From assembly GCF_053078305.1 (NCBI RefSeq), contig NZ_CP166879.1: a DNA stretch of 64,000 bases; one strand, 5' to 3'. Made by a program: the position numbers and the translations under genes. Shown one piece after another: positions 5,545 to 64,000 of this stretch. Position 1 is the first letter of the stretch; every line of letters starts with the position of its first letter. Under the pieces are notes generated by a model. The model was not told the DNA's origin, searched no databases, and saw nothing but the letters and a program-made list of their open reading frames with translations.

Positions 5545-5588
5545 AACCCTACCTTACTTGTGACTGATTTTTAAAAGAACCCGGGAAA

Positions 5589-5846
5589 TTACTCGAGTTC
5601 CGCCATCAGTTTAACCAGATGTTCAACCGCTTTCTGCTCGTCTTCGCCTTCTGCGGAGATAGTCACAACGGTACCTTGAGTCAGGCCCAGAGTCTGCAGT
5701 TTAAACAGGCTTTTCGCGCTGGCGCTTTTGCCGTTGGAAGTCACAGTAATTTCAGAAGTGAAGCCCTTAGCTTCTTTTACAAACTGGGCAGCAGGGCGGG
5801 TGTGCAGACCGTTCGGAGCGGTAATGGTAACTTCTTGCTGGAACAT
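5589..5846 (-). CDS. ptsH: PTS phosphocarrier protein HPr
   Basis: 85 aa [30 protein letters not shown], active-site His15 context. Confidence 0.95.
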
Positions 5847-6180
5847 TGTATTTCCCCAACTTATAGGTTTAGTGTTGTGGAACTAAAGTCTAGCCTGGCG
5901 GTTCGACTTTAGCCTGTATTGTTAGCGCCAGTTTTTAACAGACGCGACGCACGAAGAGCGCAATACAGTCCATTGCTGGCGGGTGTTGACCGCTGACGTT
6001 TCGTACGTCATTAAACATTATGCCGCTAAAGGAAGAATTGAACCAAATCATAAAATCGATTCAGCTTTGGCTTTTCCTGTAACGATTAATTTCGCGCATC
6101 AAAATAATTAGTCTGGTTAAATACCAGTTCCGACAGGCTGAATCAATGCCAGGAGGGGCGAAAGTTTGAAGCAGGCCACA

Positions 6181-6208
6181 AAAAAGCACCTAAAAAGGTG
6201 CTTTTTTA
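6181..6208. terminator. rho-independent terminator downstream of cysK (bidirectional form)
   Basis: aaaaAGCACCtaaaaaGGTGCTtttttt hairpin with flanking A and T runs. Confidence 0.65.
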
Positions 6209-6229
6209 CGCATTTTTAACAAGCTGGCA

Positions 6230-7201
6230 TTACTGTTGCAATTCTTTCTCCGTGAAGAGATCGGCAAACAATGCGGTGCTTAAATAACGCTCACCCGATG
6301 ACGGTAGAATAACCACAATATTCTTGTTGGTAAAGCTTTCATCTTCTTGTAGTTTCAACGCCGCAGCAACAGCTGCTCCAGAAGAGATACCTGCAAGAAT
6401 ACCTTCTTCTTCCATCAGACGACGCGCGGTAGAAATCGCTTCTTCATTGGTTATGCCAATGACTTTATCGACCAGCTTGAGATCGAGGTTAGCCGGGATA
6501 AAACCAGCGCCAATACCCTGAATTTTATGCGGGCCAGGTTTAATCTCTTCACCTGCCAGCGCCTGGGCGATAACTGGAGAATCGGTTGGCTCAACGGCGA
6601 CAGAGATAAGATCGGTCTTACCTTTGGTGCCTTTAATGTAGCGGCTGACGCCAGTCAGCGTACCGCCAGTCCCAACGCCAGCAATAAATACATCAACCTG
6701 ACCGTCGGTATCTTCCCAGATCTCCGGACCGGTGGTTTTTTCGTGAATTTCAGGGTTTGCCGGATTGCTGAATTGTTGCAGCAGCAGGTATTTCTCTGGA
6801 TTGCTGGCGACAATTTCTTCTGCTTTTTGGATTGCGCCTTTCATGCCTTTAGCACCTTCGGTCAGCACCAGGTTTGCACCTAACGCTTTCAGCAGCTTGC
6901 GGCGTTCAATACTCATGGTTTCTGGCATGGTCAGGGTGAGTTTGTAACCGCGAGCGGCAGCGACATAGGCCAGTGCAATCCCGGTATTACCGCTGGTTGG
7001 TTCAACCAGTTCAACGCCTGGTTTCAGCACGCCGCGCTTTTCGGCATCCCAAATCATGTTGGCACCGATACGGCACTTAACGCTGAAGCTGGGGTTACGA
7101 GATTCCACCTTCGCCAGAATGCGTCCGTTACCGATGCGATTCAGGCGAACCAGCGGCGTGTGACCGATAGTCAGCGAGTTATCTTCAAAAATCTTACTCA
7201 T
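6230..7201 (-). CDS. cysK: cysteine synthase A (O-acetylserine sulfhydrylase A)
   Basis: 323 aa [23 protein letters not shown]...; PLP-dependent fold. Confidence 0.95.
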
Positions 7202-12764: not shown

Positions 12765-13691
12765 ATGAATTATTCTTTAAAACAATTAAAGGTTTTCGTC
12801 ACAGTAGCGCAGGAGAAAAGTTTTAGTCGTGCAGGAGAGCGTATCGGCCTGAGCCAGTCGGCAGTGAGTCACAGTGTGAAGGAGCTGGAAAATCATACTG
12901 GTGTTCGCCTGCTGGACAGAACCACGCGTGAAGTGGTGCTTACAGATGCAGGGCAGCAGTTGGCTTTGCGTCTTGAGCGACTGCTGGATGAACTTAACAG
13001 CACGTTGCGCGATACCGGGCGTATGGGGCAACAACTGAGCGGAAAAGTTCGGGTCGCTGCCAGCCAGACCATTTCCGCGCATCTTATTCCGCAATGCATT
13101 GCTGAAAGCCATCGCCGCTATCCAGATATTCAGTTTGTCCTGCACGATCGTCCGCAGCAGTGGGTGATGGAAAGTATTCGCCAGGGAGATGTCGACTTTG
13201 GCATCGTCATCGATCCAGGCCCAGTGGGCGATCTGCAATGTGAAGCGATTCTTTCCGAGCCTTTCTTTCTGCTTTGCCATCGCGATAGCGCTTTGGCCGC
13301 GGAAGATTATGTACCCTGGCAGGCATTACAGGGAGCGAAATTGGTGTTGCAGGATTACGCGTCAGGCAGCCGACCGCTGATTGACGCAGCGCTGGCGCGC
13401 AATGGTATTCAGGCGAATATTGTGCAGGAGATTGGACATCCGGCGACGCTGTTCCCGATGGTAGCCGCAGGCATCGGCATCAGTATTCTTCCCGCACTGG
13501 CGCTACCATTGCCTGAAGGTAGCCCACTGGTGGTAAAGCGCATTACGCCGGTTGTTGAACGCCAGTTGATGCTGGTGCGCAGGAAGAACCGTTCACTTTC
13601 CACCGCCGCTGAAGCGTTATGGGACGTGGTACGAGACCAGGGCAATGCGCTAATGGCTGGGCGGGAAGGGGATCCGTTGTATCAGATATAG
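12765..13691 (+). CDS. yfeR: LysR-family transcriptional regulator YfeR
   Basis: 308 aa; N-terminal HTH ([35 protein letters not shown]) plus substrate-binding domain. Confidence 0.85.
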
Positions 13692-14023
13692 ATATCGATA
13701 TGAGTCGTATTTTCAACAGGATTTAGAAGGGATACATTCAGAGACAAACGCTGCTCTTTCTCCTGCGCCTTTTCTGCCTGCTGTCTCTGCAACTGCGCCA
13801 GTTGTGTTTCCAGTAGGGTGACTTGCTGTTGAATCAATTCGGCCTGTTTTTGCTTGTCTTCAGCACTGCCGCTAGTGTCTACAATCTCTTTAATTTGTTG
13901 AGTGAGTTTGATGATTTGCTGACTTATCCGCGCGATTTGTGAAGCAACATCGCTACCTTGTGATGCCCTGTTACTACTCTGTGTTTGTATGGAAGGAATT
14001 GAAGTTGAAGAGATAGTGGCCAT
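13682..14023 (-). CDS. FlxA-like small protein (Q-rich coiled coil, C-terminal ...HIDIYI)
   Basis: 113 aa ORF with GAGGA RBS 7 nt upstream of ATG; composition and C-terminus resemble FlxA family; overlaps yfeR 3' end by 10 bp on the opposite strand. Confidence 0.5.
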
Positions 14024-14051
14024 TGTTCAGTCCTCGTCACTGTACGAGGTA

Positions 14052-14078
14052 ATATCGGTAGAAGAACAAGGAACTTGA
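14052..14078 (-). promoter_or_regulatory. putative sigma-28 (FliA) promoter upstream of FlxA-like ORF
   Basis: On minus strand TCAAGTTC-N11-ACCGATAT versus consensus TAAAGTTT-N11-GCCGATAA, about 28 nt upstream of the start codon. Confidence 0.35.
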
Positions 14079-14110
14079 GAAGAAAAATCAATCTTACAAA
14101 TCGCAGATAG

Positions 14111-14141: not shown

Positions 14142-14217
14142 TTGGTGGGTCGTGCAGGATTCGAACCTGCGACCAATTGATTAAAAGTCAACTGCTCTAC
14201 CAACTGAGCTAACGACC
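14142..14217 (-). tRNA. lysV: tRNA-Lys (anticodon UUU)
   Basis: Reverse complement reads GGGTCGTTAGCTCAGTTGGTAGAGCAGTTGACTTTTAATCAATTGGTCGCAGGTTCGAATCCTGCACGACCCACCA. Confidence 0.95.
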
Positions 14218-14221
14218 CGAA

Positions 14222-14297
14222 GTGGTGGGTGATGACGGGATCGAACCGCCGACCCCCTCCTTGTAAGGGAGGTGCTCTCCCAGCTGAGCTAATCACC
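14222..14297 (-). tRNA. valY: tRNA-Val (anticodon UAC)
   Basis: Reverse complement reads GGGTGATTAGCTCAGCTGGGAGAGCACCTCCCTTACAAGGAGGGGGTCGGCGGTTCGATCCCGTCATCACCCACCA. Confidence 0.95.
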
Positions 14298-14344
14298 CAC
14301 TTCGGTACTTCACATTTTTACAAGAAATTTAGCTGGTGAGAAAG

Positions 14345-14420
14345 TGGTGGGTGATGACGGGATCGAACCGCCGACCCCCTCCTTGTAAGGGAGGTGCTCT
14401 CCCAGCTGAGCTAATCACCC
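14345..14420 (-). tRNA. valX: tRNA-Val (anticodon UAC)
   Basis: Identical 76-nt tRNA-Val sequence, second copy. Confidence 0.95.
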
Positions 14421-14464
14421 ACTTCTCAATTTCTTGCTACACGGCGGAGACTACATAAAGTAGT

Positions 14465-14540
14465 TGGTGGGTGATGACGGGATCGAACCGCCGACCCCCT
14501 CCTTGTAAGGGAGGTGCTCTCCCAGCTGAGCTAATCACCC
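14465..14540 (-). tRNA. valU: tRNA-Val (anticodon UAC)
   Basis: Identical 76-nt tRNA-Val sequence, third copy; first gene of the operon on the minus strand. Confidence 0.95.
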
Positions 14541-17239: not shown

Positions 17240-17315
<76 letters not shown>

Positions 17316-17354
17316 AATTTTGCACCCAGCAAATTTGGTACGTAAACGCATCGT

Positions 17355-17430
<76 letters not shown>

Positions 17431-17469
17431 AATTTTGCACCCAGCAAATTTGGTACGTAAACGCATCGT

Positions 17470-17545
<76 letters not shown>

Positions 17546-19950: not shown

Positions 19951-19982
19951 AAAAAACCGGGGAATTATCCCCGGCTTTTTTA
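19951..19982. terminator. bidirectional rho-independent terminator between convergent pdeA and nupC
   Basis: aaaaaaACCGGGGaattatCCCCGGCttttttt. Confidence 0.7.
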
Positions 19983-50893: not shown

Positions 50894-52057
50894 GTGGAAC
50901 AGATTAATTCAAATAAAAAACATTCTAACAGAAGAAAATACTTTTCTTTATTGGCGATAGTTTTATTTATTGCGTTTTCAGGTGCTTATGCCTATTGGTC
51001 AATGGAATTAGAAGACATGATTAGTACAGATGACGCCTATGTCACGGGGAATGCAGATCCAATTTCTGCACAAGTCTCAGGTAGTGTCACTGTAGTTAAT
51101 CATAAAGATACGAACTACGTTCGACAGGGTGACATTTTAGTTTCACTGGATAAAACTGATGCCACTATCGCACTCAATAAAGCTAAAAATAATCTGGCAA
51201 ATATTGTTCGGCAAACGAATAAACTGTACTTACAGGATAAACAATACAGTGCCGAAGTCGCTTCAGCACGTATTCAGTATCAACAATCTTTAGAAGATTA
51301 TAACCGTCGTGTGCCTTTAGCGAAGCAGGGGGTTATTTCAAAAGAAACGCTGGAGCATACCAAAGATACGTTAATAAGTAGCAAAGCGGCATTGAATGCC
51401 GCTATCCAGGCTTATAAAGCGAATAAAGCTTTAGTAATGAACACACCATTAAACCGTCAGCCACAAGTCGTTGAAGCTGCGGATGCAACCAAAGAAGCCT
51501 GGTTGGCGCTTAAACGTACGGATATTAAGAGTCCGGTTACCGGCTATATTGCCCAGAGAAGTGTTCAGGTCGGCGAAACAGTGAGCCCCGGACAATCGTT
51601 AATGGCTGTCGTACCGGCACGTCAAATGTGGGTTAATGCCAACTTTAAAGAAACACAACTCACGGATGTACGGATTGGTCAATCGGTCAATATTATCAGC
51701 GATCTTTATGGTGAAAATGTTGTGTTTCATGGCCGGGTGACAGGGATCAATATGGGAACCGGCAATGCGTTCTCCTTATTACCTGCACAAAATGCGACAG
51801 GGAACTGGATCAAAATCGTTCAGCGTGTACCGGTTGAAGTTTCTCTTGATCCAAAAGAACTCATGGAACACCCCTTGCGCATTGGTTTATCGATGACTGC
51901 AACTATTGATACGAAGGACGAAGACATTGCTGAGATGCCTGATCTGGCTTCAACCGTGACCTCCATGCCTGCTTATACCAGTAAGGCTTTAGTTATCGAT
52001 ACCAGTCCGATAGAAAAAGAAATTAGCAACATTATTTCGCATAATGGACAACTTTAA
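50894..52057 (+). CDS. emrK: multidrug efflux membrane fusion protein (EmrA-like)
   Basis: 387 aa; N-terminal TM anchor, HlyD-family coiled-coil/lipoyl regions; divergent from evgA. Confidence 0.9.
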   Translation: MEQINSNKKHSNRRKYFSLLAIVLFIAFSGAYAYWSMELEDMISTDDAYVTGNADPISAQVSGSVTVVNHKDTNYVRQGDILVSLDKTDATIALNKAKNNLANIVRQTNKLYLQDKQYSAEVASARIQYQQSLEDYNRRVPLAKQGVISKETLEHTKDTLISSKAALNAAIQAYKANKALVMNTPLNRQPQVVEAADATKEAWLALKRTDIKSPVTGYIAQRSVQVGETVSPGQSLMAVVPARQMWVNANFKETQLTDVRIGQSVNIISDLYGENVVFHGRVTGINMGTGNAFSLLPAQNATGNWIKIVQRVPVEVSLDPKELMEHPLRIGLSMTATIDTKDEDIAEMPDLASTVTSMPAYTSKALVIDTSPIEKEISNIISHNGQL

Positions 52058-53595
52058 TGGCAATCACTAAATCAACTCCAGCACCATTAACCGGTGGGAC
52101 GTTATGGTGCGTCACTATTGCATTGTCATTAGCGACGTTTATGCAAATGTTGGATTCCACTATTTCTAACGTCGCAATACCGACAATATCTGGCTTTCTG
52201 GGAGCATCAACAGACGAAGGCACCTGGGTTATCACCTCGTTTGGCGTAGCAAATGCCATTGCGATCCCTGTTACCGGCAGGCTGGCACAAAGAATAGGCG
52301 AATTAAGGTTATTTTTACTTTCAGTCACTTTTTTTTCGCTGTCTTCCTTAATGTGTAGTTTATCGACCAATCTTGATGTGTTGATATTTTTTAGAGTCGT
52401 TCAGGGGTTAATGGCAGGGCCGTTAATTCCACTGTCACAGAGTTTATTATTAAGGAATTATCCACCAGAAAAAAGAACATTTGCTCTGGCATTATGGTCA
52501 ATGACCGTGATTATAGCTCCGATATGTGGGCCGATATTAGGCGGATATATTTGCGATAACTTTAGCTGGGGTTGGATATTTTTAATCAATGTCCCTATGG
52601 GTATTATCGTCCTGACATTATGCTTAACCTTACTTAAAGGAAGAGAAACTGAGACTTCACCGGTCAAAATGAATCTACCAGGACTGACCCTGTTAGTGCT
52701 CGGTGTTGGTGGCTTGCAAATTATGCTTGATAAAGGGCGCGATCTGGATTGGTTCAACTCGAGTACAATAATAATATTAACAGTAGTATCAGTTATTTCT
52801 CTGATCTCTTTAGTCATTTGGGAGTCGACCTCAGAGAACCCGATTCTTGATCTCAGTTTGTTTAAGTCCCGTAATTTCACCATTGGTATAGTGAGTATCA
52901 CATGCGCGTATTTATTTTACTCTGGAGCGATCGTCCTTATGCCGCAGTTACTCCAGGAAACGATGGGGTATAATGCGATATGGGCCGGACTTGCTTATGC
53001 GCCCATCGGCATCATGCCACTATTAATTTCACCTTTGATAGGACGTTATGGCAACAAAATAGACATGCGGTTGTTAGTGACATTTAGTTTTTTGATGTAT
53101 GCGGTTTGCTATTACTGGCGTTCTGTGACATTTATGCCAACGATTGATTTTACAGGCATCATTTTGCCACAGTTTTTCCAGGGGTTCGCCGTTGCCTGTT
53201 TCTTTTTACCCTTAACAACGATTTCGTTTTCAGGGTTGCCAGATAATAAATTTGCCAATGCCTCGAGTATGAGTAATTTTTTTCGTACCTTGTCAGGATC
53301 AGTTGGTACGTCGTTGACAATGACGCTGTGGGGGCGACGCGAATCGTTACACCATAGTCAGTTGACAGCAACCATCGATCAATTTAACCCTGTGTTTAAT
53401 TCATCGTCACAAATTATGGATAAATACTATGGTTCGCTTTCAGGAGTTCTTAATGAAATTAATAATGAAATAACCCAGCAGTCACTTTCTATTTCTGCAA
53501 ATGAGATTTTCCGTATGGCGGCTATTGCTTTTATCTTACTTACGGTTTTGGTTTGGTTTGCGAAACCGCCGTTTACAGCGAAAGGCGTTGGGTGA
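52057..53595 (+). CDS. emrY: MFS multidrug efflux transporter (EmrB-like, 14-TM)
   Basis: 512 aa MFS ORF; start overlaps emrK stop (TAATGG). Confidence 0.9.
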   Translation: MAITKSTPAPLTGGTLWCVTIALSLATFMQMLDSTISNVAIPTISGFLGASTDEGTWVITSFGVANAIAIPVTGRLAQRIGELRLFLLSVTFFSLSSLMCSLSTNLDVLIFFRVVQGLMAGPLIPLSQSLLLRNYPPEKRTFALALWSMTVIIAPICGPILGGYICDNFSWGWIFLINVPMGIIVLTLCLTLLKGRETETSPVKMNLPGLTLLVLGVGGLQIMLDKGRDLDWFNSSTIIILTVVSVISLISLVIWESTSENPILDLSLFKSRNFTIGIVSITCAYLFYSGAIVLMPQLLQETMGYNAIWAGLAYAPIGIMPLLISPLIGRYGNKIDMRLLVTFSFLMYAVCYYWRSVTFMPTIDFTGIILPQFFQGFAVACFFLPLTTISFSGLPDNKFANASSMSNFFRTLSGSVGTSLTMTLWGRRESLHHSQLTATIDQFNPVFNSSSQIMDKYYGSLSGVLNEINNEITQQSLSISANEIFRMAAIAFILLTVLVWFAKPPFTAKGVG

Positions 53596-53702
53596 TGGTA
53601 AAAGCAGGGGGTTATAGCGGGTAAGACCGGGGATCTTAAGTCTGCGCCATCGGCAGCATCGCTCACCCAGGGAAAGGATGGCGATGCTGCGTTGAAATGT
53701 TA

Positions 53703-55031
53703 TTAACGGCCTTTTGCCAGATATTGCTCCATCTCTTCTTCCGGCACCATTCCACCTCCCGTCGCCCACACCAGATGAGTGGTATTACGCAGTTGTTCTG
53801 CGCTGAAACCGTGCATCTGTTGGTAACTTACTGATGCACACACGCGCTGAGGTCCGGCCATACCCGCCAGTGCCGAAGGTTCAAGACGAATACCTTCTTC
53901 CTGCGCCAGCCAGCCAAGCATGTCATACATGGTTTGATCGCTAAGGGTATAGAAGCCATCCAGCAGACGCTCCATTGCCCGCCCGACAAAGCCTGATGCG
54001 CGACCAACTGCAAGGCCATCCGCTGCGGTAAGGTTGTCGATACCAATATCCTGAACAGAAATCTGATCGTGTAATCCTGTATGGACGCCTAACAACATAC
54101 AAGGGGAGTGCGTTGGTTCGGCAAAAAAGCAGTGAACATGATCGCCAAACGCCAGTTTAAGCCCGAATGCGACGCCACCAGGACCACCGCCAACACCACA
54201 CGGCAGATAGACAAACAGAGGGTTATCAGCATCGACGATACGGCCTTGCTGGGCAAATTGCGCTTTAAGACGCTGGCCAGCGACGGAATACCCAAGGAAC
54301 AACGTGCGGGAATTTTCGTCATCAATAAAGAAACAGTTCGGGTCAGACTGCGCTGCTTTACGTCCTTCCTCGACGGCAACACCATAATCTTGCTCATATT
54401 CCACGACCGTAACGCCATGGCTGCGCAGTTTCGCTTTTTTCCATGCCCGGGCATCAGCAGACATATGCACTGTCACCTTAAAGCCAATGCGGGCGCTCAT
54501 AATGCCGATTGATAACCCCAGATTTCCGGTTGAGCCCACAGCAATGCTGTATTGGCTAAAGAACTGTTTAAACTCCGGAGAAAGCAGTTTGCTGTAGTCA
54601 TCATCAAGCGTCAGCAACCCCGCTTCCAGAGCCAGTTTTTCTGCGTGTGCCAGGACTTCATAAATCCCGCCGCGTGCTTTTATGGAGCCGGAAATGGGCA
54701 AATGGCTATCTTTTTTCAGTAACAGTTGCCCGCTGATCGGTTGTTGATATTCCTTTTCCAGCCGTTTTTGCATAGCCGGAATGGCAACCAGTTCTGATTC
54801 AATAATCCCCCCAGTGGCAGCAGTTTCAGGAAATGCTTTTGCCAGATAGGGTGCAAAACGGGATAAGCGCGCATGGGCGTCCTGAACATCCTGTTCGGTC
54901 AGGCCAACATAAGGTAAACCTTCAGCCAATGAGGTCGTGCCAGGATTAAACCAGGTGGTTTCTTTAAGAGCAACCAGATCCTTTACCAACGGATACTGGG
55001 CGATGAGCGAGTTCATTTTAGCGTTTTCCAT
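53703..55031 (-). CDS. dsdA: D-serine ammonia-lyase (D-serine dehydratase)
   Basis: 442 aa PLP enzyme [31 protein letters not shown]..., PLP lysine in SGSIKARGG. Confidence 0.93.
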
Positions 55032-55048
55032 AGTACGTCTCTTTGCGC

Positions 55049-55279
55049 TTAGATGATAAATGACAGCAGGAATGTGCCCGCCAGAGCGACGACTGAAGCG
55101 ATAAATGTCGCTGTCGTATAGTATTTAAATGTTTCATTGAGCGTAGCGCCGCAATATTGCTTCACCAGCCAGAAAAGCGAGTCCGTAACGATCGTGCAGC
55201 CAATCGCGCCTGAACCGATAGCAATCGCAATAATTTCCGGGCTGATGTCGGGATACAGCGGCAGCACAATGATCCATAT
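55049..55279 (-). pseudogene. dsdX: 3'-terminal remnant of D-serine permease gene dsdX (GntP family)
   Basis: Only the last ~72 codons of a GntP-type permease are present immediately upstream of dsdA; reading frame is closed by a stop at 55280-55282. Confidence 0.7.
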
Positions 55280-55373
55280 TTATATTTTCTTCTCCAGGTT
55301 GGCGATGCCAGTTGGCATGTTTTACTTACTTGCCTATATGGTTACTCGTTGGCGAGAACAGAGGCGGAATTGG

Positions 55374-55385
55374 GGACAATTGTCC
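55374..55385. promoter_or_regulatory. perfect 12-bp palindrome upstream of cscR
   Basis: GGACAATTGTCC about 110 bp upstream of cscR start; candidate operator. Confidence 0.25.
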
Positions 55386-55497
55386 GGGAATTATTGTTAT
55401 TTTTTATTGTATTGCCGTGTCAGGTGATAGGGCGTTGGATCTCGCCAGTGACGTCTGTTTCTGCTACAGTGCCCGTTTTACGGCAAACGGCTTGGGT

Positions 55498-56493
55498 ATG
55501 GCTTCATTAAAGGATGTCGCACGCCTGGCGGGAGTGTCGATGATGACAGTCTCCCGGGTGATGCATAATGCAGAATCTGTGCGTCCTGCAACGCGTGACC
55601 GCGTATTGCAGGCAATCCAGACCCTGAATTATGTTCCTGATCTTTCCGCCCGTAAGATGCGCGCTCAAGGACGTAAGCCGTCGACTCTCGCCGTGCTGGC
55701 GCAGGACACTGCTACCACTCCTTTCTCTGTTGATATTCTGCTTGCCATTGAGCAAACCGCCAGCGAGTTCGGCTGGAATAGTTTTTTAATCAATATTTTT
55801 TCTGAAGATGACGCTGCCCGCGCGGCACGTCAGCTGCTTGCCCACCGTCCGGATGGCATTATCTATACTACAATGGGGCTGCGACATATCACGCTACCTG
55901 AGTCTCTGTATGGTGAAAATATTGTATTGGCGAACTGTGTGGCGGATGACCCAGCGTTACCCAGTTATATCCCTGATGATTACACTGCACAATATGAATC
56001 AACACAGCATTTGCTCGCGGCGGGCTATCGTCAACCGTTATGCTTCTGGCTACCGGAAAGTGCGTTGGCAACAGGGTATCGTCGGCAGGGATTTGAGCAG
56101 GCCTGGCGTGATGCTGGACGAGATCTGGCTGAGGTGAAACAATTTCACATGGCAACAGGTGATGATCACTACACCGATCTCGCAAGTTTACTCAATGACC
56201 ACTTCAAATCGGGCAAACCAGATTTTGATGTTCTGATATGTGGTAACGATCGCGCAGCCTTTGTGGCTTATCAGGTTCTCCTGGCTAAGGGGGTACGTAT
56301 CCCGCAGGATGTCGCCGTAATGGGCTTTGATAATCTGGTTGGCGTCGGGCATCTGTTTTTACCGCCGCTGACCACAATTCAGCTTCCACATGACATTATC
56401 GGGCGGGAAGCTGCATTGCATATTATTGAAGGTCGTGAAGGGGGAAGTGTGACGCGGATCCCTTGCCCGCTGTTGATCCGTTGTTCCACCTGA
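55498..56493 (+). CDS. cscR: LacI-family sucrose operon repressor
   Basis: 331 aa from MASLKDVARLAGVSMMTVSRVMHN (LacI HTH); the track ORF from 55312 is an upstream extension. Confidence 0.85.
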   Translation: MASLKDVARLAGVSMMTVSRVMHNAESVRPATRDRVLQAIQTLNYVPDLSARKMRAQGRKPSTLAVLAQDTATTPFSVDILLAIEQTASEFGWNSFLINIFSEDDAARAARQLLAHRPDGIIYTTMGLRHITLPESLYGENIVLANCVADDPALPSYIPDDYTAQYESTQHLLAAGYRQPLCFWLPESALATGYRRQGFEQAWRDAGRDLAEVKQFHMATGDDHYTDLASLLNDHFKSGKPDFDVLICGNDRAAFVAYQVLLAKGVRIPQDVAVMGFDNLVGVGHLFLPPLTTIQLPHDIIGREAALHIIEGREGGSVTRIPCPLLIRCST

Positions 56494-56500
56494 TATTATG

Positions 56501-57934
56501 TTAACCCAGTTGCCAGAGTGCTCCATGTTGCACCACAGCCACTCCGTGGGAGGCATAAAGCGACAGTTCCCGTTCTTCTGGCTGCGGATAGATTCGACTA
56601 CTCATCACCGCTTCCCCGTCGTTAATAAATACTTCCACGGATGATGTATCGATAAATATCCTTAGGGCGAGCGTGTCACGCTGCGGGAGGGGAATACTAC
56701 GGTAGCCGTCTAAATTCTCGTGTGGGTAATACCGCCACAAAACAAGTCGCTCAGATTGGTTATCAATATACAGCCGCATTCCAATGCCGAGCTGTAATCC
56801 GTAATGTTCGGCATCACTGTTCTTCAGCGCCCACTGCAACTGAATCTCAACTGCTTGCGCGTTTTCCTGCAAAACATATTTATTGCTGATTGTGCGGGGA
56901 GAGATAGATTGATGCTGCTGGCGTAACGACTCAGCTTCGTGTACCGGGCGTTGTAGGAGTTTGCCATTGCTCTCTGATAGCTCGCGCGCCAGCGTCATGC
57001 AGCCTGCCCAGCCTTCACGTTTTGAGGGCATTGGCGATTCCCACATATCCATCCAGCCGATAACAATACGCCGACCATCCTTCGCTACAAAGCTTTGTGG
57101 TGCATAAAAGTCATGCCCGTTATCAAGTTCAGTAAAATGCCCGGATTGTGCAAAAAGTCGTCCTGGCGACCACATTCCGGGTATTACGCCACTTTGAAAG
57201 CGATTTCGGTAACTGTATCCCTCGGCATTCATTCCCTGCGGGGAAAACATCAGATAATGCTGATCGCCAAGGCTGAAAAAGTCCGGACATTCCCACATAT
57301 AGCTTTCACCCGCATCAGCGTGGGCCAGTACGCGATCGAAAGTCCATTCACGTAATGAACTGCCGCGATAAAGCAGGATCTGCCCCGTGTTGCCTGGGTC
57401 TTTCGCCCCGACTACCATCCACCATGTGTCGGCTTCACGCCACACTTTAGGATCGCGGAAGTGCATGATTCCTTCTGGTGGAGTGAGGATCACACCCTGT
57501 TTCTCGAAATGAATACCATCCCGACTGGTAGCCAGACATTGTACTTCGCGAATTGCATCGTCATTACCTGCACCATCGAGCCAGACGTGTCCGGTGTAGA
57601 TAAGTGAGAGGACACCATTGTCATCGACAGCACTACCTGAAAAACACCCGTCTTTGTCATTATCGTCTCCTGGCGCTAGCGCAATAGGCTCATGCTGCCA
57701 GTGGATCATATCGTCGCTGGTGGCATGTCCCCAGTGCATTGGCCCCCAGTGTTCGCTCATTGGGTGATGTTGATAAAACGCGTGATAACGATCGTTAAAC
57801 CAGATCAGGCCGTTTGGATCGTTCATCCACCCGGCAGGAGGCGCGAGGTGAAAATGGGGATAGAAAGTGTTACCCCGGTGCTCATGAAGTTTTGCTAGTG
57901 CGTTTTGCGCCGCATGCAATCGAGATTGCGTCAT
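56501..57934 (-). CDS. cscA: sucrose-6-phosphate hydrolase / invertase (GH32)
   Basis: 477 aa from MTQSRLH...; GH32 motifs WMNDPNG, FRDPKV, WECPD. Confidence 0.88.
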   Translation of the reverse strand: MTQSRLHAAQNALAKLHEHRGNTFYPHFHLAPPAGWMNDPNGLIWFNDRYHAFYQHHPMSEHWGPMHWGHATSDDMIHWQHEPIALAPGDDNDKDGCFSGSAVDDNGVLSLIYTGHVWLDGAGNDDAIREVQCLATSRDGIHFEKQGVILTPPEGIMHFRDPKVWREADTWWMVVGAKDPGNTGQILLYRGSSLREWTFDRVLAHADAGESYMWECPDFFSLGDQHYLMFSPQGMNAEGYSYRNRFQSGVIPGMWSPGRLFAQSGHFTELDNGHDFYAPQSFVAKDGRRIVIGWMDMWESPMPSKREGWAGCMTLARELSESNGKLLQRPVHEAESLRQQHQSISPRTISNKYVLQENAQAVEIQLQWALKNSDAEHYGLQLGIGMRLYIDNQSERLVLWRYYPHENLDGYRSIPLPQRDTLALRIFIDTSSVEVFINDGEAVMSSRIYPQPEERELSLYASHGVAVVQHGALWQLG

Positions 57935-57966
57935 TTTAATCATCCTGGTTAAGCAAATTTGGTGAA

Positions 57967-58044
57967 TTGTTAACGTTAACTTTTATAAAAATAAAGTCCC
58001 TTACTTTCATAAATGCGATGAATATCACAAATGTTAACGTTAAC
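57967..58044. promoter_or_regulatory. cscA / cscKB divergent control region with two copies of a LacI-type operator palindrome
   Basis: TGTTAACGTTAAC occurs at 57967-57980 and 58032-58044 (core GTTAACGTTAAC is palindromic). Confidence 0.55.
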
Positions 58045-58149
58045 TATGACATTTTGTGATCGAATATGCATGTTTTAGTAAATCCATGACGATTTTGCGA
58101 AAAAGAGGTTTATCACTATGCGTAAGTCAGATGAATTTAAGGGAAAAAA

Positions 58150-59064
58150 ATGTCAGCCAAAGTATGGGTTTTAGGGGATGCGGTAGTAGATCTCTTGCCA
58201 GAATCAGACGGGCGCCTACTGCCTTGTCCTGGCGGCGCGCCAGCTAACGTTGCGGTGGGAATCGCCAGATTAGGCGGAATAAGTGGGTTTATAGGTCGGG
58301 TCGGTGATGATCCTTTTGGTGCGTTAATGCAAAGAACGCTGCTAACTGAGGGAGTCGATATCACGTATCTGAAGCAAGATGAATGGCACCGGACATCCAC
58401 GGTGCTTGTCGATCTGAACGATCAAGGGGAACGTTCATTTACGTTTATGGTCCGCCCCAGTGCCGATCTTTTTTTAGAGACGACAGACTTGCCCTGCTGG
58501 CGACATGGCGAATGGTTACATCTCTGTTCAATTGCGTTGTCTGCCGAGCCTTCGCGTACCAGCGCATTTACTGCGATGACTGCGATCCGGCATGCCGGAG
58601 GTTTTGTCAGCTTCGATCCCAATATTCGTGAAGATCTATGGCAAGACGAGCATTTGCTCCGCTTGTGTTTGCGGCAGGCGCTACAACTGGCGGATGTCGT
58701 CAAGCTCTCGGAAGAAGAATGGCGACTTATCAGTGGAAAAACACAGAACGATCGGAATATATGCGCCCTGGCAAAAGAGTATGAGATCGCCATGCTGTTG
58801 GTGACTAAAGGTGCAGAAGGGGTGGTGGTCTGTTATCGAGGACAAGTTCACCATTTTGCTGGAATGTCTGTGAATTGTGTCGATAGCACGGGGGCGGGAG
58901 ATGCGTTCGTTGCCGGGTTACTCACAGGTCTGTCCTCTACGGGATTATCTACAGATGAGAGAGGAATGCGACGAATTATCGATCTCGCTCAACGTTGCGG
59001 AGCGCTTGCAGTAACGGCGAAAGGGGCAATGACAGCGCTGCCATGTCGACAAGAACTGGAATAG
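58150..59064 (+). CDS. cscK: fructokinase (ribokinase/pfkB family)
   Basis: 304 aa; pfkB motifs (VVDLLPE..., DSTGAGDAFVAGLL). Confidence 0.88.
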   Translation: MSAKVWVLGDAVVDLLPESDGRLLPCPGGAPANVAVGIARLGGISGFIGRVGDDPFGALMQRTLLTEGVDITYLKQDEWHRTSTVLVDLNDQGERSFTFMVRPSADLFLETTDLPCWRHGEWLHLCSIALSAEPSRTSAFTAMTAIRHAGGFVSFDPNIREDLWQDEHLLRLCLRQALQLADVVKLSEEEWRLISGKTQNDRNICALAKEYEIAMLLVTKGAEGVVVCYRGQVHHFAGMSVNCVDSTGAGDAFVAGLLTGLSSTGLSTDERGMRRIIDLAQRCGALAVTAKGAMTALPCRQELE

Positions 59065-59135
59065 TGAGAAGTAAACGGCGAAGTCGCTCTTATCTCTAAA
59101 TAGGACGTGAATTTTTTAACGACAGGCAGGTAATT

Positions 59136-60383
59136 ATGGCACTGAATATCCCATTCAGAAATGCGTACTATCGTTTTGCATCCAGTTACTCATTTCTCTT
59201 TTTTATTTCCTGGTCGCTGTGGTGGTCGTTATACGCTATTTGGCTGAAAGGACATCTAGGGTTGACAGGGACGGAATTAGGTACACTTTATTCGGTCAAC
59301 CAGTTTACCAGCATTCTATTTATGATGTTCTACGGCATCGTTCAGGATAAACTCGGTCTGAAGAAACCGCTCATCTGGTGTATGAGTTTTATCCTGATCT
59401 TGACCGGACCGTTTATGATTTACGTTTATGAACCGTTACTGCAAAGCAATTTTTCTGTAGGTTTAATTCTGGGGGCGCTCTTTTTTGGCCTGGGGTATCT
59501 GGCGGGATGCGGTTTGCTTGACAGCTTCACCGAAAAAATGGCGCGAAATTTTCATTTCGAATATGGAACAGCGCGCGCCTGGGGATCTTTTGGCTATGCT
59601 ATTGGCGCGTTCTTTGCCGGCATATTTTTTAGTATCAGTCCCCATATTAACTTCTGGTTGGTCTCGCTATTTGGCGCTGTATTTATGATGATCAACATGT
59701 GTTTTAAAGATAAGGATCACCAGTGCGTAGCGGCGGATGCGGGAGGGGTAAAAAAAGAGGATTTTATCGCAGTTTTCAAGGATCGAAACTTCTGGGTTTT
59801 CGTCATATTTATTGTTGGGACGTGGTCTTTCTATAACATTTTTGATCAACAACTTTTTCCTGTCTTTTATGCAGGTTTATTCGAATCACACGATGTAGGA
59901 ACGCGCCTGTATGGTTATCTCAACTCATTCCAGGTGGTACTCGAAGCGCTGTGCATGGCGATTATTCCGTTCTTTGTGAATCGGGTAGGGCCAAAAAATG
60001 CATTACTTATCGGTGTTGTGATTATGGCGTTGCGTATCCTTTCCTGCGCGCTGTTCGTTAACCCCTGGATTATTTCATTAGTGAAGCTGTTACATGCCAT
60101 TGAGGTTCCACTTTATGTCATATCCGTCTTCAAATACAGCGTGGCAAACTTTGATAAGCGCCTGTCGTCGACGATCTTTCTGATTGGTTTTCAAATTGCC
60201 AGTTCGCTTGGGATTGTGCTGCTTTCAACGCCGACTGGGATACTCTTTGACCACGCAGGCTACCAGACAGTTTTCTTCGCAATTTCGGGTATTGTCTGCC
60301 TGATGTTGCTATTTGGCATTTTCTTCCTGAGTAAAAAACGCGAGCAAATAGTTATGGAAACGCCTGTACCTTCAGCAATATAG
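59136..60383 (+). CDS. cscB: sucrose:H+ symporter (oligosaccharide:H+ symporter family, LacY-like)
   Basis: 415 aa 12-TM MFS ORF. Confidence 0.88.
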   Translation: MALNIPFRNAYYRFASSYSFLFFISWSLWWSLYAIWLKGHLGLTGTELGTLYSVNQFTSILFMMFYGIVQDKLGLKKPLIWCMSFILILTGPFMIYVYEPLLQSNFSVGLILGALFFGLGYLAGCGLLDSFTEKMARNFHFEYGTARAWGSFGYAIGAFFAGIFFSISPHINFWLVSLFGAVFMMINMCFKDKDHQCVAADAGGVKKEDFIAVFKDRNFWVFVIFIVGTWSFYNIFDQQLFPVFYAGLFESHDVGTRLYGYLNSFQVVLEALCMAIIPFFVNRVGPKNALLIGVVIMALRILSCALFVNPWIISLVKLLHAIEVPLYVISVFKYSVANFDKRLSSTIFLIGFQIASSLGIVLLSTPTGILFDHAGYQTVFFAISGIVCLMLLFGIFFLSKKREQIVMETPVPSAI

Positions 60384-60824
60384 ACGTAAACTTTTTCCGG
60401 TTGTTGTCGATATCTCCATATCCTTCAACCGGAAAATAATAATACTAAAATGCTTAGCCCTGCTAATAATCGCCTAATCCAAACACCTCATTCATGTTCT
60501 GGTACAGTCGCTCAAATGTACTCCGGATACACGGTTCGCTGATTTCCAGGACATTGTCGTCATTCAGCGACCTGTCGCGTGTATCACGGGCCTGCGAATT
60601 CATCAAGGAATGCATTGCGGAGTGAAGTATCGAGTCACGCCATATTTCGCTATCAGGATTCTGTGTGATGGTTACATCGCCCGGCCCAAGGCTGTTTAGT
60701 CATCAGCGCTTTCTGACAGTGCTGAGATTTCAACCTGTTGCAGTAAAAATGAGTAGATATAGGGCAAGTGTGCTGCCAAACCCATCGTTTACGGGATGAA
60801 GGTAGATTTGGTTTGAAGGGTATC

Positions 60825-60839
60825 TGGTGTCCCCTGCAG
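60825..60839 (-). other. prophage att core: copy of the 3' end of tRNA-Arg (argW-type)
   Basis: TGGTGTCCCCTGCAG is the reverse complement of ...CTGCAGGGGACACCA (3' acceptor end of tRNA-Arg-CCU as recalled); similarity stops after 15 nt, so this is a partial copy and not a tRNA gene. Confidence 0.5.
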
Positions 60840-60912
60840 ACATCTACTTGAAGCGGCAGGGGATTGATTGGAATGGTGTTTTTTAGATGTGAAAAATATT
60901 TTACCCGCTATT

Positions 60913-61113
60913 TTACCCATTGGCGCGGCTTAAGAGCTTATTTTTGAATTCACAATGGTCACGATATAACCATCTTGCTCGCCCGTGGATAACTTTGGCT
61001 TTAGGTAGGTCTCCGGACTTAATCCGGTCATAGATGAAGGTCTTACCGAAGCCAGTATCAGCCATGATGAATTTCAAATCAACCAGTGAATCAGGTTGTA
61101 GTTCGTGTTGCAT
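60913..61113 (-). CDS. torI: AlpA/TorI-type excisionase (recombination directionality factor)
   Basis: 66 aa MQHELQPDSLVDLKFIMADTGFGKTFIYDRIKSGDLPKAKVIHGRARW...; winged-helix Xis family; matches my recollection of TorI of the argW prophage. Confidence 0.6.
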   Translation of the reverse strand: MQHELQPDSLVDLKFIMADTGFGKTFIYDRIKSGDLPKAKVIHGRARWLYRDHCEFKNKLLSRANG

Positions 61114-61217
61114 GAGTGCTATCTCCGAATAGGGAATCGAACCTGCAAATCAGGCAATAAAAAAACCGCATTGATGCGGCGATGGTAGGTCTGGATATCT
61201 TGATAAATGAAAATGCC

Positions 61218-61496
61218 TCATCGAGTGTGAGGCGGTGTGATTCCATGGTTACCTCTGCTTTTTGAACGCATGTCACGTAACTTCTTAATGTGTTCTGCCG
61301 TTTCGATCTCTTCTGCTATCCGATCTGCATCAGCTTTATTCACAGGTTCAAAGTCATGATTAAAGCGGAACATGCTGGCGATACATGTTCTGCCTTTTCG
61401 GATGTAGTGAACTTTGTTGTGGTTAGAACGCAGGATTTTGCAGGGAGTGCCGTGGTGGTCGACGTACCAGGTGTTAGGCAAAATGATTCTGAACAT
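61218..61496 (-). CDS. hypothetical prophage protein
   Basis: 92 aa ORF co-oriented with the prophage early-left operon. Confidence 0.45.
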   Translation of the reverse strand: MFRIILPNTWYVDHHGTPCKILRSNHNKVHYIRKGRTCIASMFRFNHDFEPVNKADADRIAEEIETAEHIKKLRDMRSKSRGNHGITPPHTR

Positions 61497-61543
61497 TTTT
61501 ACACCTCAGTTGGACGATGTTGAAATTTGCTCCTTTGAGGTCA

Positions 61544-61762
61544 TCACAATCCCCATTGTTTGTTCTTAAGTTCGATCTCCTCCTGGCAACTTGCACAAGT
61601 CCGACAACCCTGAACGGCTAGGCGTCTTCGCTTATCTATGGGATCGCCACACTCACAACAATGAGTGGCAGATATAGCCTGGTGGTTCAGGCGGCGCATT
61701 TTTATTGCTGTGTTGCGCTGTAATTCTTCAATTTCTGATGCTGAATCAATGATGTCTGCCAT
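61544..61762 (-). CDS. DksA/TraR-family C4 zinc-finger protein (phage-encoded)
   Basis: 72 aa with CxxC-N17-CxxC (CCECGDPID...CRTCASC). Confidence 0.6.
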   Translation of the reverse strand: MADIIDSASEIEELQRNTAIKMRRLNHQAISATHCCECGDPIDKRRRLAVQGCRTCASCQEEIELKNKQWGL

Positions 61763-61860
61763 CTTTCATTAATCCCTGAATTGTTGGTTAATACGCTTGA
61801 GGGTGAATGCGAATAATAAAAAAGGAGCCTGTAGCTCCATGAAGATTTTGCTTTTCATGT

Positions 61861-62142
61861 TCACCGTTCCTTAAAGACGCCGTTTAACATACCGATTGCC
61901 AGACTTAAGTGAGTCGGTGTGAATCCCATCAGCGTTACCGTTTCGCGGTGCTTCTTCAGTACGCTACGGCAAATGTCATCGACGTTTTTATCCGGAAACT
62001 GCTGTCTGGCTTTTTTGATTTCAGAATTAGCCTGACGGGCAATACTGCGAAGGGCGTTTTCTTGCTGAGGTGTCATTGAACAAGTCCCATGTCGGCAAGC
62101 ATAAGCACACAGAATATGAAGCCCGCTGCCAGAAAAATGCAT
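61861..62142 (-). CDS. hypothetical prophage protein (start uncertain; internal Met would give about 71 aa)
   Basis: 93 aa ORF in the early-left region. Confidence 0.4.
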   Translation of the reverse strand: MHFSGSGLHILCAYACRHGTCSMTPQQENALRSIARQANSEIKKARQQFPDKNVDDICRSVLKKHRETVTLMGFTPTHLSLAIGMLNGVFKER

Positions 62143-62152
62143 TCAGTGGTTG

Positions 62153-62344
62153 TCATACCTGGTCTCTCTCATCTGCTTCTGCTTTCGCCACCATCATTTC
62201 CAGCTTTTGTGAAAGGGATGTGGCTAACGTATGAAATTCTTCGTCTGTTTCTGCTGGTATTGGCACAAACCTGACTCCAATTTGAGCAAGGCTATGTGCC
62301 ATCTCAATGCTCGTTCTTAACTCAACAGGAGATGCTTTGTGCAT
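62153..62344 (-). CDS. hypothetical small prophage protein
   Basis: 63 aa ORF immediately downstream of exo in the same operon orientation. Confidence 0.4.
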   Translation of the reverse strand: MHKASPVELRTSIEMAHSLAQIGVRFVPIPAETDEEFHTLATSLSQKLEMMVAKAEADERDQV

Positions 62345-62495
62345 ACAGCCCCTCGTTTATTATTTATCTCCTCAGCCAGCCGCTGGGCTTTCAGTGGATT
62401 TTGGATAACAGAAAGGCCGGGAAATACCCAGCCTCGCTTTGTAACGGAGTAGACGAAAGTGATCGCACCTACCCGGATATTATCGTGAGGATGCT

Positions 62496-63176
62496 TCATC
62501 GCCATTGCTCCCCAAATACAAAACCAATTTCAGCCAGTGCCTCGTCCATTTTTTCGATGAACTCCGGCACCATCTCGTCAAAACTCGCCATGTAATTTTC
62601 ATCCCGCTCAACCACGACATAATGCAGGCCTTCACGCTTCATGCGTGGGTCATAGTTGGCAAAGTACCAGGCATCTTTTCGCGTCACCCACATGCTGTAC
62701 TGCACCTGGGCCATGTAAGCCGACTTTATGGCCTCGAAACCACCGAGCCGGAACTTCATGAAATCCCGGGAGGTAAACGGGCATTTCAGCTCAAGACCAT
62801 TGCCGTCACTGCATAAACCATCGGGAGAGCAGGCGGTGCGCATACTTTCGTCGCGATAGATGATCGGGGATTCAGTAACATTCACGCCGGAAGTGAATTC
62901 AAACAGGGTTCTGGCGTCGTTCTCGTACTGTTTTCCCCAGGCCAGCGCCTTAGCATTAACTTCCGGAGCCACACCGGTGCAAACCTCAGCCAGCAGGGTG
63001 TGGAAGTAGGACATTTTCATGTCAGGCCATTTCTTTCCGGAGCGGGGTTTTGCTATCACGTTGTGAACTTCTGAAGCTGTGATGACGCCGAGCCGTAATT
63101 TGTGCCACGCATCATCCCCCTGCTCGACAGCTCTCACGTCGATCCCGGTACGCTGCAGGATAATGTCTGGTGTCAT
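62496..63176 (-). CDS. exo: lambda-type 5'-3' exonuclease (Red alpha)
   Basis: 226 aa [37 protein letters not shown]...; matches phage lambda Exo as recalled. Confidence 0.9.
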
Positions 63177-63958
63177 GCTGCCACCTTCTGCTCAGTGGCT
63201 TTTTGTTTCAGGAATCCAAGAGCTTTCACTGCTTCGGCCTGTGTCAGTTCTGACGATGCACGAATGTCGCGGCGAAATATCTGGGAACAGAGCGGCAATA
63301 AGTCGTCATCCCATGTTTTATCCAGGGCGATCAGCAGAGTGTTAATCTCCTGCATGGTTTCATCGTTAACCGGAGTGATGTCGCGTTCCGGCTGGCGTTC
63401 TGCAGTGTATGCGGTATTTTCGACAATGCGCTCGGCTTCATCCTTGTCATAGATACCAGCAAATCCGAAGGCCAGGCGGGCACACTGAATCATGGCTTTA
63501 TGCCGTAACATCCGTTTGGGATGCGACTGCCACGGGCCGGTGATTTCTCTGCCTTCGCGGGTTTTGAATGGTTCGCGTCGGCATTCATCCATCCACTCGG
63601 TAACGCAGATCGGATGATTACGGTCTTTGCGGTAAATCCGGCATGTACAGGATTCATTGTCCTGCTCAAAGTCCATGCCATCAAACTGCTGGTTTTCATT
63701 GATGATGCGGGACCAGCCATCAACGCCCACCACCGGAACGATGCCGTTCTGCTTATCAGGGAAGGCGTAAATTTCTTTCGTCCACGGATTAAGGCCGTAC
63801 TGGTTGGCGACGATCAACAATGCGATGAACTGCGCATCGCTGGCATCGCCTTTAAATGCTGTCTGGCGAAGAGTGGTGATCAGTTCCTGTGGGTCGACAG
63901 AATCCATGCCGACACGTTCAGCCAGCTTCCCTGCCAGCGTTGCGAGTGCTGTACTCAT
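63173..63958 (-). CDS. bet: lambda-type single-strand annealing protein (Red beta)
   Basis: 261 aa [35 protein letters not shown]...; start overlaps exo by 4 nt. Confidence 0.9.
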
Positions 63959-63963
63959 CCGTT

Positions 63964-64000
63964 TTATACCTCTGAATCAATATCAACCTGGTGGTGAGCA
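63964..64000 (-). CDS. gam: Gam-like RecBCD inhibitor, C-terminal end only (gene continues beyond window)
   Basis: Minus-strand frame ends ...AHHQVDIDSEV* 5 nt upstream of bet start, consistent with the lambda Gam C-terminus. Confidence 0.6.
   Translation of the reverse strand, partial: AHHQVDIDSEV

Follow-up and report, generated by a model that had tools for sequence, protein, structure and literature searches.

Does a sucrose regulon stand in place of the D-serine genes at the argW-dsd region of this genome, and what would such a swap leave of D-serine use and bring in sucrose use? We addressed this in a window of 64,000 nucleotides, the whole stretch of DNA analysed, for which a first-pass annotation had reported that a csc system replaces dsdC and most of dsdX next to an intact dsdA. 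We are highly confident that this locus carries the csc allele common in the E. coli argW-dsd region, 2368 bp of K-12-type DNA having given way to a module of 5558 bp. From this we infer a loss of D-serine use and a probable, slow use of sucrose. This exchange of csc for dsdCX at argW is already known, well documented and ordinary, and is in print (Jahreis 2002; Moritz and Welch 2006; Connolly 2015; O'Boyle 2020), the content of the first two papers being taken from later papers that cite them.

The dsdA gene (53703..55031, minus strand) encodes a D-serine ammonia-lyase of 442 aa, full-length as reported: it scored 814 bits against TIGR02035 (cut-off 368), was 99.8% identical to K-12 DsdA over 442 aa by tblastn, and carries the PLP lysine motif SGSIKARG at residues 114–121, with K118 present. 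Next to it, only the tail of dsdX remains, a pseudogene of the last 71 codons and the stop (55049..55266, minus strand) identified by tblastn and blastn against a K-12-type locus. It corresponds to K-12 DsdX residues ~374–445 (NF007395 positions 374–445). The truncation described in the first-pass annotation was correct. The 218 nt hold 71 complete codons, the stop and 2 further nt, and the GTG start of the 72-codon ORF is due to the junction base. RefSeq calls this remnant a partial pseudogene in relatives, and dsdA and the 219-nt remnant had identical annotation in 10 csc+ genomes sampled down the ranking. As at the dsdCXA locus of K-12 and CFT073, dsdA and the last 71 dsdX codons are collinear with K-12 (~99% identical) and the emrKY-evgAS flank is the same.

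Base-by-base alignment with a K-12-type dsdCXA sequence, as the first-pass annotation had proposed, placed the left junction at 55266/55267. K-12 dsdX homology runs up to 55266, csc-specific DNA begins at 55267, and every dsdCXA-type genome stopped matching at one base (query position 1667). Compared to the K-12/CFT073 dsdCXA locus, the one here lacks dsdC, the control region between dsdC and dsdX, and codons 1 to ~373 of dsdX; the DNA displaced from the K-12-type locus consists of the 5′ 1120 bp of dsdX, this control region, dsdC and 95 bp past dsdC. The absence of dsdC was borne out in the 64-kb window, in which a tblastn search with K-12 DsdC gave just a 28%-identical LysR paralogue, yfeR (12771–13277). 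Similarly, no full-length DsdX (a GntP-family permease) was found in the window, residues ~374–445 alone being left.

From the truncation point, the csc system is complete, with four full-length, uninterrupted ORFs (cscR, cscA, cscK and cscB) and cscA divergent from cscK-cscB, as reported; we found none of the frameshifts that would have spoken against it. Exact sequences of all four proteins are recorded in public genomes. cscR (55498..56493, plus strand) encodes a sucrose repressor of 331 aa matching LacI-family profiles, found in exact form on at least 1000 contigs and 3 substitutions away from the ‘Sucrose operon repressor’ of E. coli W. It is preceded by a csc-specific leader lacking K-12 homology (55267..55497, plus strand), which presumably holds the cscR promoter. 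The leader shows a 12-bp length polymorphism among csc+ genomes, cscR starting at locus position 1899 or 1911, and the variant 12 bp shorter is the one present here. cscA (56501..57934, minus strand), convergent with cscR and co-directional with dsdA, encodes a GH32 invertase of 477 aa (477 bits against TIGR01322; E = 2.5e-173 against PDB 7vco) with the catalytic motifs WMNDPNG at 36, RDP at 160 and EC at 215. cscK (58150..59064, plus strand) encodes a PfkB-family fructokinase of 304 aa, with 504 bits against NF006957 (cut-off 450) and a GAGD motif; the exact protein occurs on 209 contigs. CscA and CscK show a few substitutions relative to known csc alleles.

The fourth gene, cscB (59136..60383, plus strand), encodes a LacY-type sucrose:H+ symporter of 415 aa (590 bits against TIGR00882), the alignment with LacY spanning residues 11–399. 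The equivalents of LacY R144, R302, H322 and E325 are conserved (R147, R, H320 and E323), and D replaces LacY E126. This is a rare allele, carrying V88I, R189C and C327Y relative to common ones, and its exact sequence was found on only 2 contigs. C327Y lies one helical turn away from the essential E323.

Between cscA and cscK, a repeat search and a scan for CRP-like sites of the divergent control region (57935..58149) revealed two GTTAACGTTAAC palindromes, putative CscR operators, at 57969–57980 and 58033–58044 (64 bp apart), and a CRP-like site, TGCGATGAATATCACA, at 58014–58029 with one mismatch to the consensus. These match the two 12-bp inverted repeats and the Crp site described for csc (PMC11251922).

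The first-pass annotation had ended the module at 60440, which was too early: csc DNA extends to 60824 and K-12 homology is back at 60825. Downstream of cscB we thus distinguish a csc-linked flank of 441 bp (60384..60824, minus strand). tblastn detected in it a degraded piece from the interior of a DUF4942 gene (60472–60672), 60% identical to aa 85–151 of a 281-aa DUF4942 protein, in a frame full of stops. Elsewhere, the full-length DUF4942 gene sits in a CbtA/YeeU toxin-antitoxin gene cluster. The right boundary itself is a 15-nt copy of the argW 3′ end, TGGTGTCCCCTGCAG (60825..60839, minus strand), identical to the annotated tRNA-Arg 3′ end and serving also as a prophage attR core. Only this copy abuts the csc module because a lambdoid prophage has integrated into argW; in 1415 genomes the csc flank passes straight into intact argW-yfdC.

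Of 5426 complete E. coli genomes, 2646 (about half) have the same junctions and arrangement, counted at a query coverage of at least 80%. Together with several papers, this count shows that the first-pass annotation was right to relate the locus to the known variability of argW-dsdCXA. Identical junctions across thousands of genomes imply one ancestral event, after which the csc allele would have spread by homologous recombination through the conserved flanks. The csc-region DNA is 98–99.6% identical to that of many genomes, O157:H7 included. The cscRAKB loci of EC3132, W and O157:H7 EDL933 (Bockmann 1992; Jahreis 2002) have the four genes in the order and orientation seen here, the two 12-bp palindromic putative operators, the CRP-like site and the same position between truncated dsdX and argW. 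Only allelic detail differs from them, namely the triple substitution in CscB, a few in CscA and CscK, and the shorter leader before cscR.

As to D-serine, dsdA would be deprived of the DsdC-activated dsdX promoter and would keep a weak, DsdC-independent expression. With this promoter lost, the strain is expected to be sensitive to D-serine and unable to use it for growth. According to the literature, EDL933 and W carry the same replacement and have lost D-serine use, and the D-serine and sucrose phenotypes are mutually exclusive. The poor dsdA expression without dsdC suggested in the first-pass annotation is supported by experiments on EHEC of the same architecture, in which dsdA is silent and D-serine toxic, and in which only deletions letting the cscA or z3622 promoters (cscAp, z3622p) read into dsdA restore expression (PMC7486766). 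The 8-bp repeat CCGGATAA, mediator of one of these EHEC deletions, is absent here.

As to sucrose, in the scheme drawn from the literature CscB brings in sucrose with a proton, CscA hydrolyses it and CscK phosphorylates the fructose, the divergent cscA and cscKB promoters being repressed by CscR until sucrose is present and needing cAMP-CRP as well. The strain is probably able to use sucrose, slowly. Accordingly, of the trade of D-serine for sucrose utilisation put forward in the first-pass annotation, the loss of the D-serine genes stands, but the sucrose side was overstated, since sucrose supports slow or very slow growth in most csc+ scr- isolates (PMC11251922).

Three other readings of the locus were weighed. 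The sucrose genes might be cryptic, through tight CscR repression or a rare CscB that impairs transport, so that D-serine use was lost with no gain of sucrose use. We regard this as unlikely, although it is the likeliest of the three: beside the slowness of csc+ scr- isolates, 5 of 29 did not grow on sucrose at all, 4 of these having no obvious csc defect and the other a cscB frameshift (PMC11251922), and the R189C and C327Y substitutions belong to a CscB sequence found in exact form on just two contigs. Furthermore, cscB is interrupted by a stop codon in N1454, one of the relatives sampled, so csc does decay in some lineages. Against it, every one of the four ORFs is intact here, as are the two putative operators and the CRP-like site, and CscB conserves those LacY charge residues that align with it. 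That csc was merely inserted, with dsdC and a full dsdX surviving nearby and D-serine use kept, is very improbable. Stephens et al. (2024), who treat the distribution of csc, found dsdC ‘often retained’ with csc, a few strains having both loci complete, and reported that some strains carry dsdC, or a second complete dsdCXA, elsewhere. The first-pass annotation had named a full-length dsdX and dsdC elsewhere at the locus as a possible objection to its reading, but no dsdC or second dsdX was found in the 64-kb window or in its 7-kb extension (L007). In addition, cscB and the argW core lie just 441 bp apart, with nothing in the interval able to encode a DsdC-like protein, and in prophage-free relatives argW-yfdC comes directly after the csc flank.

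The remaining reading supposes that dsdA has been rewired: sucrose-induced cscA transcripts would run antisense through cscR, and on through the dsdX remnant, into dsdA, giving a sucrose-dependent D-serine detoxification. The geometry is favourable, with cscA and dsdA co-directional and the stop codons of the convergent cscA and cscR 7 bp apart. The minus strand showed no hairpin or terminator-like site from cscA to the dsdX remnant, and a consensus scan, an inverted-repeat search and Rfam revealed no relevant terminator or structured RNA between cscA and dsdA. Removal of cscR in EHEC lets cscAp drive dsdA, and dsdA is intact in 12/12 csc+ genomes examined. However, reporter output from the cscAp-to-dsdA fragment of wild-type EHEC was low, activation having required a deletion. 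Moreover, a long untranslated RNA such as this antisense one of ~1.2 kb is a likely target of Rho termination. We consider the rewiring improbable, and we similarly doubt that csc+ lineages keep dsdA intact for a continued use by way of conditional read-through from the sucrose-induced cscA promoter. If true, D-serine detoxification would be coupled to sucrose availability without DsdC. A promoter scan picked out a single consensus-like site in 7.7 kb, whereas shuffled sequence gave more, so the scan bears on neither the dsdA nor the csc promoters. Selection on dsdA was analysed by Nei-Gojobori dN/dS with 12 csc+ and 8 dsdCXA+ sequences. Ratios of 0.105 and 0.034, respectively, were obtained in a comparison that is underpowered and confounded by recombination, and the corresponding counts of segregating sites, synonymous to nonsynonymous, were 41:14 and 68:11 (Fisher p = 0.12). 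The signal is confounded because the ratio of the dsdX pseudogene remnant was equally low (0.036), 2 of its 5 variable sites were shared with dsdCXA+ genomes, and no fixed differences separated the two groups. As dN/dS did not distinguish continued use of dsdA from recombination with dsdCXA+ strains, it was dropped as evidence in either direction.

The replacement of dsdCX by csc thus remains the preferred reading. The csc/dsd polymorphism, in which two metabolic traits contest a single chromosomal site, is a textbook case of such competition. Niche differences have been linked to it: D-serine-rich urine as against the gut, the repression by D-serine of type III secretion in EHEC, and Crohn's-associated strains. 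For this subAB-positive STEC genome the prediction, useful for phenotype prediction, is a D-serine-sensitive strain that may use sucrose. The locus brings no new biology; the small additions made here are the exact boundaries, the argW att core end, the DUF4942 remnant and the rare CscB allele.

Beyond the boundary, and outside the csc module, the window is filled by the start of the lambdoid prophage integrated in argW (60840..64000, minus strand). The argW direct repeat adjoins the excisionase gene torI (60913–61113), which is followed by an exonuclease-like gene (62496–63176) and bet (63173–63958), matching lambda-exonuclease family and Bet models. In the L007 extension the prophage continues with Gam, a KilR-family protein, a cI-like repressor, O and P. 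Its integrase end, and with it the intact argW, fall outside the window. The attR/TorI module of KplE1 (CPS-53) in K-12 has the same 15-nt argW core followed by torI, whose protein is 100% identical, and the DNA is 94% identical over 60825–61233. Beyond the TorI module, KplE1 carries yfd genes, whereas the prophage here is lambda-like, with exonuclease-like, bet, gam, KilR-family, O and P genes.

In the window, a complete csc sucrose system stands in place of dsdC and most of dsdX, beside a full-length dsdA. This replacement is real, was correctly read by the first-pass annotation and is already well described; the anatomy of the locus can be followed directly in the window sequence. Gene identities were taken from an ORF list and an NCBIfam scan. 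After emrK (50894-52057) and emrY (52057-53595), both on the plus strand, comes dsdA (53703-55031, minus strand), a D-serine ammonia-lyase equivalog (814 bits) whose product shares 99.8% identity with K-12 DsdA across its full 442 residues and retains the PLP-lysine motif. Next to it, a 72-codon ORF (55049-55267, minus strand) matches no more of DsdX than its C-terminus (positions 374-445 of the 445-position profile). The dsdX DNA left amounts to 218 nt (71 codons, 2 nt and the stop), and the GTG 'start' of the ORF comes from the junction.

We aligned the window with the K-12-type locus of strain JME64 (L002; emrKY-dsdA-dsdX-dsdC-torI), a comparison proposed in the first-pass annotation for placing the breakpoint. 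Homology extends at 99.1% identity up to 55266, ending inside dsdX, and picks up again at 60825. Between these positions the window genome carries 5558 bp versus 2368 bp in K-12; the replaced DNA consists of dsdC with a further 95 bp downstream of it, the spacer between dsdC and dsdX, and 1120 bp at the 5′ end of dsdX. On the right, the junction can be placed to the base: 60825-60839 (TGGTGTCCCCTGCAG) reproduces, in reverse complement, the 3′-terminal 15 nt of the tRNA-Arg gene argW. The csc module thus ends at the argW attachment core, and the end previously assigned to it, 60440, lies ~385 bp before the true boundary. As claimed earlier, dsdC is absent from the locus: tblastn of K-12 DsdC against the whole window returned just the LysR paralogue yfeR (28% identical, at 12.8 kb), and DsdX returned the remnant alone. 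The 441 bp separating cscB from the argW core are too small for dsdC, and in prophage-free relatives argW and yfdC come straight after the csc flank. The D-serine locus loss is that seen within the 64-kb window, and a dsdC copy may lie elsewhere in the genome.

The module contains cscR (55498-56493, plus strand; LacI family), cscA (56501-57934, minus strand; GH32 hydrolase), cscK (58150-59064, plus strand; PfkB fructokinase) and cscB (59136-60383, plus strand; LacY-type MFS transporter). All four genes are uninterrupted and every exact protein is present in public genomes, in agreement with a complete system free of frameshifts. CscA carries the GH32 motifs WMNDPNG, RDP and EC and matched a solved sucrose-6-phosphate hydrolase with E = 2.5e-173. 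The CscB-LacY alignment spans residues 11-399; counterparts of LacY R144, R302, H322 and E325 are kept, and D129 replaces E126. The window CscB is a rare allele, recorded in identical form on 2 contigs; it differs from common alleles by V88I, R189C and C327Y, residue 327 lying four residues past E323, the E325 equivalent. Sucrose catabolism by CscB, CscA and CscK is controlled by CscR and CRP. In the 215 bp cscA-cscK spacer, the palindrome GTTAACGTTAAC occurs twice, 64 bp apart (putative CscR operators), with the CRP-like site TGCGATGAATATCACA between the copies, similarly to the published csc spacer, where a Crp site accompanies two inverted repeats of 12 bp that were put forward as CscR operators (PMC11251922). 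Ahead of cscR, the leader that begins at the dsdX junction (55267-55497) differs in length by 12 bp between csc+ genomes (those with the csc module), which places the cscR start at locus offset 1899 or 1911; the shorter version is present in the window.

The flank 60384-60824 (441 bp) accompanies csc in every csc+ genome. Within it, 60472-60672 shows ~75% DNA and 60% protein identity to the central part (aa 85-151) of DUF4942 genes encoding 281 aa; the frame is interrupted by many stops and the fragment is a dead remnant. In strain D2, a full-length DUF4942 gene adjoins a CbtA/YeeU toxin-antitoxin gene cluster. The remnant hints that argW may formerly have been flanked, on the csc side, by integrative-island DNA. 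In EDL933, the z3622 ORF sits directly after cscB, on the same strand as dsdA, at the place that this fragment occupies in the window. On the other side, the argW core serves as attR for a lambdoid prophage running past the window end (60840-64000, then 11700-21248 of L007, the extension beyond it). After the core come torI (protein 100% identical) and lambda-like recombination genes. The TorI/att module is of the K-12 KplE1 type, lambda-like genes following it in the window prophage. These include exonuclease-like, bet, gam, KilR-family, cI-like repressor, O and P genes (the latter five types in L007), with a HipA_2/DUF3037 pair between the KilR-family gene and the repressor.

The same arrangement was published for EC3132, EDL933 and E. 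coli W, with cscRAKB in place of dsdC and part of dsdX beside argW (PMC4366372, PMC7486766, PMC3032704), which supports the earlier link to known argW-dsdCXA variability; these papers trace it to two earlier studies, Jahreis 2002 and Moritz and Welch 2006. In a Megablast search of 5426 complete E. coli genomes, the query 53600-61000 recovered the whole csc arrangement in 2646, at 95-99.6% identity, so that it is common to about half of sequenced E. coli. All dsdCXA-type genomes lose homology at one base (query 1667, window 55266). A synthetic 'empty-site' query (csc flank, full argW and start of yfdC) matched over its full length in 1415 genomes; argW therefore carries no integration in about half of the csc+ genomes. 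Ten csc+ genomes sampled down the ranking had the same intact dsdA and 219-nt dsdX pseudogene. One of them, the close relative N1454, has an internal stop in cscB (L009, its locus, 5549-6796), an example of csc decay within the same allele class. Since junctions are identical in divergent backgrounds, they point to a single ancestral replacement, which would then have spread via homologous recombination of the flanks; the 'recombination hot spot' of the literature is consistent with such spread.

Expression of dsdXA depends on DsdC. We infer that the window strain is D-serine-negative and D-serine-sensitive, and sucrose-positive, probably with slow growth. For E. coli W, D-serine utilisation is stated in the literature on the replacement to have been lost through it; in EHEC, where D-serine is toxic, the dsd system is described as 'nonfunctional without DsdC' (PMC7486766), which fits the suggestion that dsdA is poorly expressed here. 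D-serine and sucrose phenotypes are reported to be largely mutually exclusive and to follow the two alleles, and csc+ isolates without scr grow slowly or very slowly on sucrose, 5/29 not at all (PMC11251922). The proposed trade of D-serine for sucrose utilisation overstates the sucrose side. Sucrose-induced transcription could conceivably read through from cscA into dsdA, as both genes have the same direction with only the convergent cscR between them (7 bp between the cscA and cscR stop codons). We keep this improbable reading because no terminator-like hairpin was found on the minus strand between cscA and dsdA; in EHEC, reporter data speak for a silent wild-type arrangement, dsdA activity appearing only after deletion of cscR or the whole csc locus, which puts dsdA under the cscA or z3622 promoters (PMC7486766). 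The dN/dS of dsdA was 0.105 in csc+ versus 0.034 in dsdCXA+ genomes (those with the K-12-type D-serine locus), with segregating synonymous:nonsynonymous sites of 41:14 versus 68:11 (p = 0.12), a signal confounded by recombination because the dead dsdX remnant appears equally 'constrained' and shares polymorphisms with dsdCXA+ genomes.

From 49136 to its end at 64000, the window matches contig JPQG01000003.1 (GCA_000736735.1) of E. coli strain 48 at 100% identity; this strain has served as reference for the subAB2-3 variant of subtilase cytotoxin (PMC5323612), and the prophage host is a subAB-positive STEC. Elsewhere, the K-12-type genome has an IS421 (IS4-like) copy between nupC and pdeA that the window lacks (~19960-19971). 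The xapABR xanthosine operon and yfeN (4.4 kb in K-12, yfeR to the tRNA-Val/Lys cluster) are missing at 13693-14096, where ~400 bp with a 113-aa FlxA-like ORF (13682-14023, minus strand) are found, as in 1306/5426 complete genomes. Finally, three tRNA-Val(UAC) genes and tRNA-Lys lie at 14143-14540 and three tandem tRNA-Ala(GGC) genes at 17240-17545, versus two Val and two Ala genes in the K-12-type comparison genome.
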